Translations under genes and position numbers: made by a program | Notes under the pieces: generated by a model | Databases searched by the model: none | What the model saw: the letters and a program-made list of their open reading frames with translations, nothing else | What the model was told of the DNA's origin: nothing | In this document: positions 1-8,825 of the stretch, one piece after another | Position numbering within the stretch: the stretch's first letter is position 1 | How the letters are laid out: every line of letters begins with the position of its first letter | Source: Escherichia coli | GTDB lineage: Bacteria; Pseudomonadota; Gammaproteobacteria; Enterobacterales; Enterobacteriaceae | Length of the DNA stretch: 64,000 nt | Strand: one strand, 5' to 3' | Assembly (NCBI RefSeq): GCF_003334785.1 | Contig: NZ_QOWV01000002.1

Positions 1-33
1 CCGGGCAGGGGCGAGTTTGAGGTGAAGTAAGAC

Positions 34-522
34 ATGAGACTGACATCTAAAGGGCGCTATGCCGTGACCGCAATGCTTGACGTTGCGCTCAACTCTGAAG
101 CGGGCCCGGTACCGTTGGCTGATATTTCCGAACGTCAGGGAATTTCCCTTTCTTATCTGGAACAACTGTTTTCCCGTCTGCGTAAAAATGGTCTGGTTTC
201 CAGCGTACGTGGACCAGGCGGTGGTTATCTGTTAGGCAAAGATGCCAGCAGCATCGCCGTTGGCGAAGTAATTAGCGCCGTTGACGAATCTGTAGATGCC
301 ACCCGTTGTCAGGGTAAAGGCGGCTGCCAGGGCGGCGATAAATGCCTGACCCACGCGCTGTGGCGTGATTTGAGCGACCGTCTCACCGGTTTTCTCAACA
401 ACATTACTTTAGGCGAACTGGTTAATAACCAGGAAGTGCTGGATGTGTCTGGTCGTCAGCATACTCACGACGCGCCACGCACCCGCACACAAGACGCGAT
501 CGACGTTAAGTTACGCGCTTAA
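34..522 (+). CDS. iscR: Fe-S cluster assembly transcriptional regulator IscR (Rrf2 family)
   Basis: ORF-track ORF of 162 aa; N-terminal HTH and Cys-rich cluster-ligand region ([13 protein letters not shown]); first gene of the isc operon by synteny. Confidence 0.95.
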
Positions 523-5629: not shown

Positions 5630-5806
5630 TTTCCGCGTCATGCTTCACGCCGCAGATGCGTTGGCTGCGCTCGTTCACCCCTGTCACATAGTTATCTATG
5701 CTCCTGGGGCTTCACTCACTTGCCGCCTTCCTGCAACGCGAATCATTTAGCGGAAAAATCCTGGGGCTGCCAACTGGCGGCCCTTTTACAAAGAAGGATA
5801 ACTAAA

Positions 5807-7090
5807 ATGACAGAAGCGATGAAGATTACCCTCTCTACCCAACCTGCCGACGCGCGCTGGGGAGAAAAAGCAACTTACAGCATTAATAATGACGGCATTA
5901 CCCTGCATTTGAACGGGGCAGACGATCTGGGGCTGATCCAGCGTGCGGCGCGCAAGATTGACGGTCTGGGCATCAAGCATGTTCAGTTAAGCGGTGAAGG
6001 CTGGGATGCGGATCGCTGCTGGGCATTCTGGCAAGGTTACAAAGCCCCGAAAGGCACGCGTAAAGTGGTGTGGCCGGATCTGGACGATGCCCAGCGCCAG
6101 GAACTGGATAACCGCCTGATGATCATCGACTGGGTGCGTGACACCATCAACGCACCGGCAGAAGAATTGGGACCATCGCAACTGGCACAGCGTGCTGTTG
6201 ATCTGATCAGCAACGTCGCGGGCGATCGTGTGACTTATCGGATCACCAAAGGCGAAGATCTGCGTGAGCAAGGTTATATGGGGCTGCACACAGTCGGACG
6301 CGGTTCAGAACGTTCTCCGGTATTGCTGGCGCTGGATTACAACCCAACTGGCGATAAAGAAGCGCCAGTGTACGCGTGCCTGGTAGGTAAAGGTATCACT
6401 TTTGACTCCGGCGGCTACAGCATCAAACAGACTGCGTTTATGGACTCGATGAAGTCGGACATGGGCGGCGCGGCAACGGTTACCGGGGCGCTGGCATTTG
6501 CCATTACGCGCGGACTGAACAAGCGCGTGAAGCTGTTCCTCTGCTGTGCGGATAACCTGATTAGCGGCAATGCGTTCAAGCTGGGCGATATCATCACCTA
6601 TCGCAACGGTAAAAAAGTTGAAGTGATGAACACTGATGCCGAAGGGCGTCTGGTGCTTGCCGATGGTCTGATTGATGCCAGTGCGCAGAAACCGGAAATG
6701 ATCATTGATGCGGCGACCCTCACCGGGGCGGCGAAAACTGCGCTGGGTAATGATTATCACGCGCTGTTCAGTTTTGACGATGCGCTGGCCGGTCGCTTGC
6801 TGGCGAGTGCCGCGCAGGAGAACGAACCGTTCTGGCGTCTGCCGCTGGCGGAGTTCCACCGCAGCCAGCTGCCGTCTAACTTTGCCGAACTGAACAATAC
6901 CGGAAGCGCGGCGTATCCGGCAGGCGCGAGCACGGCGGCGGGCTTCCTGTCGCACTTTGTTGAGAACTATCAGCAAGGCTGGCTGCATATCGACTGCTCG
7001 GCGACTTACCGTAAAGCGCCGGTTGAACAGTGGTCTGCGGGCGCTACGGGACTTGGTGTGCGCACGATAGCTAATCTGTTAACGGCGTAA
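5807..7090 (+). CDS. pepB: peptidase B (M17 leucyl aminopeptidase family)
   Basis: Track ORF 5720-7090 trimmed to ATG at 5807 ([11 protein letters not shown]...), 427 aa; M17 catalytic motif NTDAEGRL present. Confidence 0.93.
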
Positions 7091-7098
7091 ACTAATAT

Positions 7099-7200
<102 letters not shown>

Positions 7201-7231
7201 CGCCCCGAACGTTGAATGAATTGTGGTTCTT

Positions 7232-8008
7232 ATGTCCGAAACAAAAAACGAACTTGAAGACCTGCTGGAAAAAGCAGCAACTGAACCGGCGCACCGCCCG
7301 GCCTTTTTCCGTACTCTACTGGAATCCACCGTCTGGGTGCCTGGTACGGCGGCGCAGGGCGAGGCTGTGGTTGAAGATAGCGCGCTTGATTTACAGCACT
7401 GGGAAAAAGAAGACGGCACCAGCGTCATTCCTTTTTTCACCTCGTTAGAAGCACTTCAACAGGCGGTTGAAGACGAACAGGCATTTGTCGTAATGCCCGT
7501 TCGCACGCTGTTTGAGATGACACTTGGCGAAACGCTCTTCCTTAATGCCAAACTGCCAACCGGTAAAGAATTTATGCCGCGTGAAATCAGTTTGTTGATT
7601 GGTGAAGAGGGAAATCCGCTGAGCAGCCAGGAAATCCTGGAAGGCGGTGAATCGCTGATATTATCGGAAGTCGCAGAGCCGCCAGCACAAATGATTGATT
7701 CACTCACCACCTTATTTAAAACCATTAAGCCGGTGAAGCGTGCTTTTATTTGTTCAATTAAAGAGAACGAAGAGGCACAGCCTAATTTACTTATTGGCAT
7801 TGAAGCCGATGGTGATATCGAAGAAATTATTCAGGCGACGGGAAGTGTAGCGACCGATACATTACCTGGCGATGAACCAATCGATATTTGTCAGGTGAAA
7901 AAAGGGGAAAAAGGAATTAGCCACTTTATTACCGAACATATTGCGCCATTCTATGAACGTCGCTGGGGTGGTTTTTTGCGTGACTTTAAACAGAATCGGA
8001 TAATCTAA
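7232..8008 (+). CDS. sseB: serine-sensitivity enhancing protein SseB
   Basis: Track ORF 7223-8008 trimmed to ATG at 7232 (MSETKNELEDLL...), 258 aa; synteny pepB-sseB-ryfA-sseA. Confidence 0.9.
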   Translation: MSETKNELEDLLEKAATEPAHRPAFFRTLLESTVWVPGTAAQGEAVVEDSALDLQHWEKEDGTSVIPFFTSLEALQQAVEDEQAFVVMPVRTLFEMTLGETLFLNAKLPTGKEFMPREISLLIGEEGNPLSSQEILEGGESLILSEVAEPPAQMIDSLTTLFKTIKPVKRAFICSIKENEEAQPNLLIGIEADGDIEEIIQATGSVATDTLPGDEPIDICQVKKGEKGISHFITEHIAPFYERRWGGFLRDFKQNRII

Positions 8009-8010
8009 AA

Positions 8011-8031
8011 TATGCCGCCCAAAGGGCGGCA
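8011..8031. terminator. GC-rich hairpin ATGCCGCCC-aaa-GGGCGGCAT between the sseB stop and the small ORF stop
   Basis: Perfect 9-bp stem with a 3-nt loop; on the minus strand it is followed by the U/A-rich run AUAUUUUA. Confidence 0.5.
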
Positions 8032-8038
8032 TTCGGGC

Positions 8039-8176
8039 TTACTTGCTGCTCTGAAGGTTGTTAACCACCAGTAAATTGTCGCCGGAGAGACTCCGGTTAT
8101 TATTTACCTCGGTTAACAGCGCACCAGAAACAATAAGTACGATACAAAAGCACCGTATCTTCATTGTGCGGTCCAT
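8039..8176 (-). CDS. candidate small membrane protein encoded within the ryfA locus (45 aa from the first ATG, 41 aa from an internal ATG at 8164); hypothetical TimP-like toxin
   Basis: Manual translation of the minus strand: MDRTMKIRCFCIVLIVSGALLTEVNNNRSLSGDNLLVVNNLQSSK, stop at 8039-8041, followed immediately by a GC hairpin at 8011-8031. Below the ORF-track reporting size (shortest listed ORF is 60 aa). No canonical Shine-Dalgarno seen, so this is speculative. Confidence 0.3.
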   Translation of the reverse strand: MDRTMKIRCFCIVLIVSGALLTEVNNNRSLSGDNLLVVNNLQSSK

Positions 8177-8294
8177 GCGAAGACCGCATCACGACAGCAC
8201 CACTGGCGATATTGCCGCGATAGCAAGCGCTGTGAAACACCTGCATTTACGGCCACGGAACATCCTTTCCTAAAGCCAGCGCCCGTTTGCGAGA

Positions 8295-8491
8295 CGGCGG
8301 AAAGGGCCGCAGTGGATAATACACTAACAGAACAATAATAACTCTCTTTTGCTTGACAAAAAGAGAGTTACTGGCGAGTATTGTCTCCGCTGAGACGCGC
8401 TTGCATTACTACGGTAATACAACCTGCTGGAAAGGCCGCGAACCGGACCAGCAACAAAAAACCGCCTGATTTTGGCGGTTTTTTGTTTTTT
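8295..8491. repeat. ryfA-locus tandem module, copy 1 (~200 nt, ends in a bidirectional terminator)
   Basis: Aligns by eye to 8617-8810 at roughly 80-85 percent identity; shared blocks GGCGGAAAGGGCCG, ACTCTCTTTTGCTTGACAAAAAGAGAGTTACTGG, CCTGCTGGAAAGGCCGCGAACC, then a terminator. Confidence 0.7.
8455..8491. terminator. bidirectional intrinsic terminator (AAAAAACCGCC-tgatttt-GGCGGTTTTTTGTTTTTT)
   Basis: GC stem flanked by an A-run on the 5-prime side and a T-run on the 3-prime side, so it is functional on either strand. Confidence 0.75.
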
Positions 8492-8616
8492 AAAGGAAAG
8501 TGAATTTACATGTTTAAGTAATATCTTTTACCGGTTAGAATTTTTAATTTTGAGCAGGATTTGTTTATATTTGTCTGAATTCGGACTAATAAGCCAGGTT
8601 ATTTTATTACCGAACA

Positions 8617-8810
8617 CGGCGGAAAGGGCCGGTGTCGATAATACGCTAAATAAACAATAATTACTCTCTTTTGCTTGACAAAAAGAGAGTTACTGGTGAG
8701 TATTGTTTTGCTGTGAAGCACCTGCGTTGCTCATGTAACACAAGTCAACCTGCTGGAAAGGCCGCGAACCAGACTAGCAATAAAAAACCGCCAAATTCGG
8801 CGGTTTTTTA
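8617..8810. repeat. ryfA-locus tandem module, copy 2
   Basis: Diverged duplicate of 8295-8491, separated from it by a ~125-nt AT-rich spacer. Confidence 0.7.
8782..8810. terminator. bidirectional intrinsic terminator; ends the sseA transcript and module copy 2
   Basis: AAAAAACCGCC-aaatt-CGGCGGTTTTTT, 15 nt downstream of the sseA stop on the minus strand. Confidence 0.8.
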
Positions 8811-8825
8811 TTGCCTGTAAAATAC

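Follow-up and report, generated by a model that had tools for sequence, protein, structure and literature searches.

The timP reading frame within ryfA of Escherichia coli and its type I toxin-antitoxin context

Does the small open reading frame (ORF) inside the ryfA locus of Escherichia coli encode the toxin of a type I toxin-antitoxin system? The question arose from an initial annotation, made from the letters alone, of a 64,000-nucleotide (nt) stretch of E. coli DNA (contig NZ_QOWV01000002.1 of assembly GCF_003334785.1; this whole stretch is called the window, and positions are given in its coordinates). An unlisted ORF of 41 to 45 codons was described there on the minus strand at 8039-8176, with a hydrophobic N terminus and a hairpin close behind it, and was compared with TimP, the toxin encoded by ryfA in Salmonella. 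The ORF is in all likelihood timP, which encodes the toxin of timPR, a type I toxin-antitoxin locus of enterobacteria, here in its E. coli K-12 form.

Identity of the reading frame in ryfA

Between 8176 and 8039, the minus strand has the sequence ATGGACCGCACAATGAAG...AAGTAA, whose translation is MDRTMKIRCFCIVLIVSGALLTEVNNNRSLSGDNLLVVNNLQSSK, in agreement with the initial annotation; counted from the first ATG (8176), the frame comprises 45 amino acids (aa), and counted from a second in-frame ATG (8164), it comprises 41 aa. The RNA and the gene that contain it are as follows.

8310..8007, minus strand: ryfA RNA, which is the timP mRNA, 304 nt, K-12 b4440 (full-length match to Rfam RF00126, 314.9 bits, E = 4.5e-88)
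8039..8164, minus strand: timP coding sequence (CDS), 41 codons plus TAA, product MKIRCFCIVLIVSGALLTEVNNNRSLSGDNLLVVNNLQSSK (RefSeq WP_001380605.1; K-12 b4812 at exactly these coordinates)

The RF00126 match bears out the placement of the ORF inside ryfA. The locus is flanked by pepB, sseB, sseA, and yfhM and is the sseB-ryfA-sseA region of E. coli K-12; 4.5 kb of the window (5665..10165) is colinear with strain MG1655 with 2 mismatches, neither of them in ryfA, timP, or timR. The ryfA sequence is identical to NC_000913.3 2653855..2654158, and the K-12 timP gene, b4812 (2654001..2654126), which carries the product label "putative toxic protein TimP," corresponds to 8164..8039 of the window. 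The Prokaryotic Genome Annotation Pipeline (PGAP) labels the same interval "timP: small toxic inner membrane protein TimP," and the RefSeq CDS is found in both ATCC 8739 and K-12. The ORF was thus unlisted only in the sense that the ORF list behind the initial annotation lacked it, whereas RefSeq annotates it as a CDS. All of the 5,426 complete E. coli genomes carry the ryfA/timP locus.

The kinship with Salmonella TimP, which the initial annotation had been unable to confirm, is borne out by the NCBIfam profile NF040796 (toxic_TimP), which the peptide matches with 86.8 bits (cutoff, 45), residues 1 to 40 lying on profile positions 1 to 40. A protein search returned TimP-named clusters in Escherichia and Shigella, almost all of them 41 aa long. 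The gene is encoded within RF00126, and its ATG stands at +147, about 145 nt from the 5' end of the RNA. The N terminus has the positively charged MKIR ahead of a hydrophobic stretch resembling a signal sequence, CFCIVLIVSGALL, as judged by hydropathy. At the sequence level, the general features of type I toxins are likewise present, i.e., a hydrophobic product of fewer than 60 aa and a base-pairing RNA antitoxin. By the family profile and the existing annotation, membership in the TimP family can be regarded as settled, and the proposal of a type I toxin of the Salmonella TimP kind within ryfA is upheld by RF00126, NF040796, the PGAP timP call, and K-12 b4812 and b4811. The gene is not new: its description dates from 2020, studies from 2024 and 2026 analyzed its translation switch, and the K-12 reference annotation includes it; the timP ORF is therefore an already described and annotated gene. 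A type I toxin gene was correctly recognized from raw sequence, and there is nothing new to claim for the gene itself.

The hydrophobic stretch had been judged long enough for a membrane-inserting segment. It is strongly hydrophobic, the peak 15-residue window being IRCFCIVLIVSGALL with a mean Kyte-Doolittle value of 2.48, but MKIR and this window look more like the n-region and h-region of a signal peptide than like a full 20-residue transmembrane helix.

Conservation of the frame and its start codon

Because dozens of ORFs of 20 to 60 codons occur in any 3.5 kb of the window, the length of the ORF alone does not exceed chance, and it is conservation rather than length that appears to make the frame significant. 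The window was compared with 13 further ryfA loci, all confirmed by Rfam (196 to 313 bits), from another E. coli lineage, E. whittamii, two Citrobacter, Superficieibacter, three Yersinia, four Rahnella, and one Erwinia, giving 14 loci in total. The 13 loci came from one pattern scan of genome contigs with GCGGTCNNNGCANNGACCGCAC, which yielded at least 120 matches; 13 of those listed were Enterobacterales ryfA loci, and most of the 120 listed were chance hits in unrelated high-GC genomes, since GCGGTCNNNGCANNGACCGCAC is a GC-rich hairpin. This pattern fixed stem-loop 4 (SL4) of the mRNA leader and GACCGCAC, so the invariance of both is not counted as evidence. The AATGAA that follows GACCGCAC is invariant although it was left free in the pattern.

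The timP frame contains no in-frame stop codon over the 14 loci, compared with 35 and 22 stops in the other two frames over the same span, and the ORF lengths are 114, 117, or 123 nt, every one a multiple of three. The check for frameshifts and stop codons in orthologous loci, which the initial annotation had named as a possible refutation, thus comes out in favor of the gene. The codon-level check that it had proposed agrees for the deeper comparisons, in which the Nei-Gojobori ratios of nonsynonymous to synonymous substitution (dN/dS) lie between 0.10 and 0.82 for the eight pairs that are more diverged, the two Escherichia pairs being uninformative. The corresponding ratio of proportions (pN/pS) is 0.42 for the N-terminal and 0.48 for the C-terminal half. 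The N-terminal pattern MK(I)R-Y/C-x-CI-x-L/I-x-V-x-G is kept across the 14 loci, and the C-terminal half is not conserved except for a terminal G/S-K/R.

These data leave next to no room for a frame that is open by chance or merely through the constraint of RNA structure on the sequence. Short ORFs are common, and the N-terminal codons do overlap a conserved hairpin (+144..+181). However, the stops are confined to the other two frames, dN/dS is well under 1 in the deeper comparisons, and the length changes are all multiples of three, also in the poorly conserved 3' half, which has no conserved structure.

The conserved start decides between the two lengths that had been offered. The alternative ATG is the following.

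8174..8176, minus strand: upstream in-frame ATG of the 45-codon reading, in the loop and 3' arm of SL4; its last G is the first base of the Shine-Dalgarno (SD) sequence of the second ATG

Of the two ATGs, the second occurs in 14/14 loci and the first in 9/14, the triplet of the first being AAG in the four Rahnella loci and the Erwinia locus. Because the second ATG is invariant and the first is replaced by AAG in five loci, the timP product is, as far as comparative sequence can tell, the 41-aa peptide that begins at 8164, and a 45-aa product is unlikely; of the range of 41 to 45 codons, the lower figure stands and the upper one falls. A 45-residue product from 8176 was assumed for strain CFT073 (+135..+270) and predicted there to carry a signal sequence at residues 1 to 22 (PMC8205139), and the first ATG is indeed in frame and present in Escherichia, Citrobacter, Superficieibacter, and Yersinia. 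However, this longer form is very improbable. Besides its loss in five loci, no purine-rich motif precedes the first ATG, whose G belongs to the SD sequence of the second; the NF040796 profile matches the 45-aa form only from residue 5, the second Met, where all PGAP and K-12 calls also begin; and the Salmonella ATG-to-AAG mutation that abolished synthesis sat at the start of the 38-aa ORF (+145), which is equivalent to E. coli +147 (PMC7667032), the two numberings being offset by 2 nt. The ATG at 8174..8176 is probably not a start codon.

Among E. coli TimP variants (P0039, P0043, P0044, P0001, and P0054), some carry in-frame deletions in the C-terminal half, and others have GNDSNLLIVFYVQIMPDDFVMQ in place of the C terminus, apparently by read-through into an inserted element.

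The timP leader, TimR, and a second TimR-like gene

The initial annotation had found no canonical SD sequence before either ATG, and this holds: there is only a GGA 7 nt ahead of the second ATG and none ahead of the first. The lack of a good SD sequence is accounted for by the known design of timP, in which a weak SD sequence in SL4 is freed by an RNA structural switch (PMC11228461, PMC13000454). In Salmonella timP, the SD sequence was shown experimentally to be trapped in SL4, and translation needs a pseudoknot between SL1 and SL3 (PMC11228461); the switch has four sites, and for translation, site 2 must also pair over a long range with the 5' arm of SL4 (PMC13000454). The corresponding elements of the window are listed here from 5' to 3' along the mRNA.

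8275..8281, minus strand: pseudoknot site 1, CGCUGGC (+30..+36), in upper SL1, partner of +104..+110 (equivalent of Salmonella G33/C34, PMC13000454)
8249..8254, minus strand: site 2, GGCCGU (+57..+62), able to pair either with site 4, in the active state, or with site 1, in the inactive state
8229..8247, minus strand: predicted TimR binding site on the timP mRNA, +64..+82, 5' arm and loop of SL2 (duplex scan)
8201..8207, minus strand: pseudoknot site 3, GCCAGUG (+104..+110), in the SL3 loop (equivalent of Salmonella G102/C103, PMC13000454)
8168..8187, minus strand: SL4 (+124..+143), GCGGUC-UUCGCAUG-GACCGC, which sequesters the ribosome binding site and whose 5' arm is site 4 (Rfam consensus structure and minimum free energy fold)
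8172..8174, minus strand: weak SD sequence GGA (+137..+139), 7 nt before the start, in the 3' arm of SL4 (read from the sequence)

The window sequence contains both the SD sequence buried in SL4 and the elements of the SL1-SL3 pseudoknot. The minimum free energy fold of ryfA has -129.4 kcal/mol (z = -5.4), and in an alignment of 13 sequences, the whole structure is 96.7% paired, versus 36 to 52% when the partners are slid. The 7-bp pseudoknot is 100% paired in these sequences, and three of its seven pairs are changed on both sides (CG to UA twice and UA to CG), so that the published covariation of the pseudoknot is reproduced with an independent species set. All 7 pairs of SL4 form in the 13 sequences, an invariance that follows from the construction of the search pattern; similarly, GGACCGCACAATGAA is invariant in the 14 loci, but GACCGCAC was part of that pattern. 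Pairing of sites 2 and 4 is also 100%, and no covariation is possible there because site 4 was fixed by the search pattern. The pairing of sites 1 and 2 reaches 96.9%, which is no better than in shuffles. The function of site 2 was shown only in Salmonella (C57-G59) (PMC13000454). A promoter scan for timP gave the candidate TTGTCA-16-TATTGT at 8359..8332, which would start transcription about 15 nt upstream of the annotated 5' end of ryfA.

The antitoxin side of the locus lies upstream of ryfA and contains three RNA genes.

8710..8809, plus strand: timR, K-12 b4811, antitoxin small RNA with its 5' end complementary to timP SL2 (NC_000913.3 2653356..2653455)
~8388..8490, plus strand: second, proximal TimR-like gene, absent from the NC_000913.3 annotation (alignment with timR and same predicted fold; 5' end placed by analogy)
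8442..8650, minus strand: IS128 RNA (Rfam RF00125, 262 bits)

TimR was sought by a sliding duplex scan with 30-nt segments, in which the strand opposite the 800 nt upstream of ryfA was paired with the SL2 region. The best partner of SL2 lies 400 nt upstream, exactly at the annotated 5' end of timR: TimR nt 1 to 19 (8710..8728) and timP +64..+82 form 19 contiguous base pairs, 2 of them G-U, with -39.5 kcal/mol, against a background across the upstream region of -14.8 kcal/mol (mean; standard deviation, 6.5). The locus thus has a divergent small RNA, annotated as timR b4811, whose 5' end is complementary to SL2. The timR gene has a TTGACA -35 box at 8675..8680, a 17-nt spacer, and GAGTAT at 8698..8703, and it closes at 8809 with a strong terminator, a stem followed by a U-run. 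The seed complementary to SL2 is found 60 to 80 nt upstream of ryfA in 12 of the 13 other loci, so the 400 nt of the window are unusual. In 10 of the 14 loci, SL2 has its strongest or joint-strongest partner in the small RNA of its own species; C. amalonaticus does not follow this pattern, and in three further loci, close relatives are nearly tied (within 1.3 kcal/mol). The loop of SL2 thus changes along with the seed of the small RNA. An early guess that TimR binds CAAUAUCGCCAG in SL3 was rejected, since the duplex scan and the K-12 annotation place the site in SL2, and duplex folding of the whole 5' untranslated region (UTR) against 170-nt upstream stretches was dropped because it gave meaninglessly long pairings.

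The SL2 loop is hypervariable in Escherichia, with at least three alleles, GCAGGUGUUUCACAGC, GCAGACACCCCACAGU, and GCAAGCGCGUCUCAGU, in the window (8229-8244) and at ryfA +67..+82 of loci L026 and L071. Each of them is matched by the seed of a neighboring TimR, which suggests that the specificities of SL2 and the seed coevolve. The ryfA of C. amalonaticus (locus L068, 8045-8340) lacks SL1, and its 5' part consists of a terminator and sequence resembling the TimR scaffold; no well-matched TimR seed was found in the 800 nt upstream, the best duplex having -30.2 kcal/mol. It is possibly a rearranged or second copy of ryfA. A 48-codon ORF in another frame (8246..8100, minus strand) begins inside the TimR binding site, at an AUG at +65, and overlaps timP. 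It was rejected as a gene because the AUG is not conserved (AACGCAG in most species), and its short counterpart in Salmonella is dispensable (PMC11228461).

The initial annotation had placed candidate antisense modules next to the ORF. Two TimR-like modules do lie upstream of ryfA, but the cognate antisense RNA is the distal one and not the adjacent one. The sseA-ryfA interval of the K-12 type consists of a tandem duplication. Like timR, the proximal TimR-like gene has TTGACA (8353-8358) and GAGTAT (8376-8381) as its -35 and -10 boxes, and the two genes agree in predicted fold and in terminator. The proximal gene departs from timR in its first ~35 nt, which match the cognate TimR of E. whittamii; its duplex with the K-12 SL2 contains interior mismatches and reaches only -33.4 kcal/mol. 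In the distal unit, the cognate timR lies on one strand and IS128 on the other. IS128 opens with a ryfA-like 5' end (CCGGCCCUUUCCGCCGUG; GGCCCUUUCCGCCGUG) and continues with unrelated AT-rich sequence, and it has the appearance of a decayed ryfA half left from a tandem ryfA-timR duplication. A total of 1,861 of the 5,426 complete E. coli genomes have the full two-unit architecture; in the rest, most sampled records match the query over one stretch of ~205 bp.

It is conceivable, though the idea is held here as tentative and somewhat doubtful, that the K-12-type locus retains an intact second TimR paralog seeded for the SL2 of E. whittamii and not for that of the adjacent timP, that timPR, with its three distinct SL2/seed alleles in Escherichia, evolves as a set of specificity alleles, and that the tandem ryfA duplication left an orphan or cross-reacting antitoxin, with IS128 as the decayed toxin side. 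The notion of specificity alleles is only partly new, as RyfB1, RyfB2, and a "variable region" were already described in Shigella dysenteriae by Fris et al. in 2017 (PMC5333039).

Three further observations concern the two units. IS128 and the proximal TimR-like gene share a bidirectional terminator. An inverted repeat of 10 to 14 bp (AACTCTCTTTT...AAAAGAGAGTT) occurs in both units (8337-8372 and 8663-8690). Its center falls where the -35 boxes of the divergent promoters overlap (plus strand, TTGACA; minus strand, TTGTCA). The repeat has the look of an operator, and we know of no regulator for it at the divergent TimR/ryfA promoters. Read on the minus strand, the sequence opposite each TimR gene (8420-8445 and 8742-8767) resembles the ryfA 5' UTR (GGTTCGCGGCCTTTCCAGCAGG versus GCGGCCCTTTCCGCCG, followed by an SL2-like segment), which suggests that timR may have originated as an oppositely transcribed partial duplicate of the timP leader.

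At its 3' end, the transcript closes with the hairpin noticed in the initial annotation.

8012..8032, minus strand: intrinsic terminator of ryfA/timP, 9-bp stem and 3-nt loop followed by AUUUU (fold, shuffles, and terminator scan)

The hairpin is perfect as claimed, with exact 9-bp arms, ATGCCGCCC (8032..8024) and GGGCGGCAT (8020..8012), around a loop that reads TTT on the minus strand (AAA on the plus strand). It folds with -17.4 kcal/mol (z = -3.6), 0 of 200 shuffles fold as well, a scan for intrinsic terminators also detects it, and its stem pairs covary between species. The distance from the stop codon had been given as 8 nt and is really 6 bases (8038..8033). The last two bases of ryfA also belong to the stop codon of sseB (8006-8008, plus strand), and the terminator hairpin begins 4 nt past that codon; sseB is without an obvious intrinsic terminator of its own, as the hairpin has no U-run when read on the plus strand. 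The pepB-sseB gap (7085-7174) gave subthreshold Rfam matches to naRNA4 and ES036, with palindromes (GGCCGGATAAGGCGTTTACGCCGCATCCGGC) resembling repetitive extragenic palindromic (REP) elements.

Toxin or regulatory RNA in E. coli

In the mechanism proposed for the locus, the 304-nt ryfA transcript would serve as the timP mRNA and encode the 41-residue peptide from the ATG at 8164, whose signal-sequence-like N terminus would direct it to the inner membrane, where overproduction would make the membrane leaky. Translation would be intrinsically restrained by the burial of the weak SD sequence GGA in the stable SL4, and the SD sequence would be exposed only upon refolding of the 5' UTR, with SL1 (+30..36) and the SL3 loop (+104..110) forming the 7-bp pseudoknot and site 2 (+57..62) pairing with the 5' arm of SL4. 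TimR, transcribed from the opposite strand 400 nt upstream, would pair through its first 19 nt with SL2 (+64..82), disrupting the active fold and blocking initiation. The ORF, its family and annotation, the conserved start, the coding signature, the RNA elements, the pseudoknot covariation, and the TimR complementarity were obtained here. Translation, membrane localization, and toxicity of E. coli TimP, its repression by TimR, and the switch mechanism are expected by analogy with experiments in Salmonella, described by Andresen et al. (2020), Eleftheraki and Holmqvist (2024), and Eleftheraki et al. (2026). Salmonella TimP was characterized through its toxicity, a start codon mutant, its presence in the inner membrane fraction, and propidium iodide uptake, and repression of timP by TimR was established with compensatory mutants and in vitro translation (PMC7667032). 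In addition, in a screen published in 2026, expressing the timP gene of Salmonella from the chromosome of E. coli proved lethal (PMC13000454).

Several points weigh against a toxin function of this allele. The literature searched contains no experiment showing that the E. coli allele is translated or toxic and no ribosome-profiling evidence for translation of E. coli ryfA, the sole profiling match, "mia-62," being from Salmonella. The K-12 record calls TimP "putative," and likeness to the TimP of Salmonella SL1344 was judged via the family profile and not by direct alignment. The C-terminal half of E. coli TimP is unlike the Citrobacter, Yersinia, and Rahnella sequences, and in some E. coli strains it carries in-frame deletions of 4 to 6 residues, which indicate that this half is weakly constrained; the two Escherichia pairs have dN/dS values of 0.66 and 1.80, which come from just 10 and 7 substitutions and are uninformative. 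Furthermore, in uropathogenic E. coli CFT073, ryfA alleles with a destroyed ORF complement every ryfA-deletion phenotype tested (PMC8205139); in avian pathogenic E. coli, the loss of timR is almost without phenotype, and the authors leave the toxic peptide of E. coli ryfA to be determined (PMC13188913); and in S. dysenteriae, Fris et al. did not observe a protein product of ryfA1 (PMC5333039).

The last three results, together with the weak constraint within Escherichia and the C-terminal deletions, also speak for an alternative in which E. coli ryfA is essentially a regulatory noncoding, ProQ-associated small RNA and the timP frame is silent or vestigial in nature. This alternative is unlikely. 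The frame, start codon, and length are kept over six genera despite heavy nucleotide divergence in the C-terminal part, and SL4, the pseudoknot, and the TimR seed are intact, with the pseudoknot and the seed covarying; such an intact and covarying apparatus for translation control is sensible only if translation matters. A regulatory role is moreover compatible with a dual-function RNA and hence does not exclude the toxin, and the E. coli and Shigella results fit a dual-function RNA with a tightly repressed toxin, with no conflict with the coding signature.

As the timP gene of timPR, the E. coli locus can be set beside known systems. It shares with Salmonella enterica TimP/TimR the families RF00126 and NF040796, the position of the ORF (+147 here versus +145), the MKIR-hydrophobic N terminus, SL1 to SL4, the 7-bp SL1-SL3 pseudoknot, sites 2 and 4, and a divergent small RNA whose 5' end pairs with SL2. 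It differs in that Salmonella TimP has 38 aa rather than 41, with a different C-terminal half, and in that Salmonella timR lies ~70 nt upstream, whereas the cognate timR of the K-12 lineage lies 400 nt upstream, with the extra TimR-like gene and the IS128 remnant between timR and timP; STM2534 is absent. Toxicity, localization, and repression have been demonstrated in Salmonella, whereas the E. coli allele is known here from sequence. The RyfA1/RyfA2 and RyfB1/RyfB2 RNAs of S. dysenteriae (Fris et al. 2017, PMC5333039) belong to the same locus family and form tandem units, each with a divergent small RNA of ~100 nt that is complementary to the "variable region" of ryfA, i.e., the SL2 loop here; that species has two full ryfA copies, whereas the window has one full copy and a 5' fragment fused to unrelated sequence (IS128).

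Among nonhomologous systems, tisB/istR-1 also comprises a small inner membrane toxin, an SD sequence in a stem-loop, a pseudoknot for initiation, and an antitoxin acting upstream of the ribosome binding site, but tisB mRNA needs ribonucleolytic 5' processing and an S1-dependent standby site, whereas timP is activated by refolding alone (PMC13000454). The hok/sok, ldr/rdl, ibs/sib, shoB/ohsC, and zor/orz systems have small hydrophobic toxins, antisense RNA control, and structured mRNAs that prevent cotranscriptional translation; they are unrelated families, and the TimR gene adjoins timP without overlapping it. Rfam matches to ohsC and OrzO-P were subthreshold only and fell on terminator hairpins.

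Three E. coli and Shigella studies ascribe ryfA phenotypes to the RNA. The two-TimR architecture of K-12 bears on any test of toxicity, in which both TimR copies count. If the reading of timPR as a set of specificity alleles is true, K-12 would carry an orphan or cross-reacting antitoxin beside timP.

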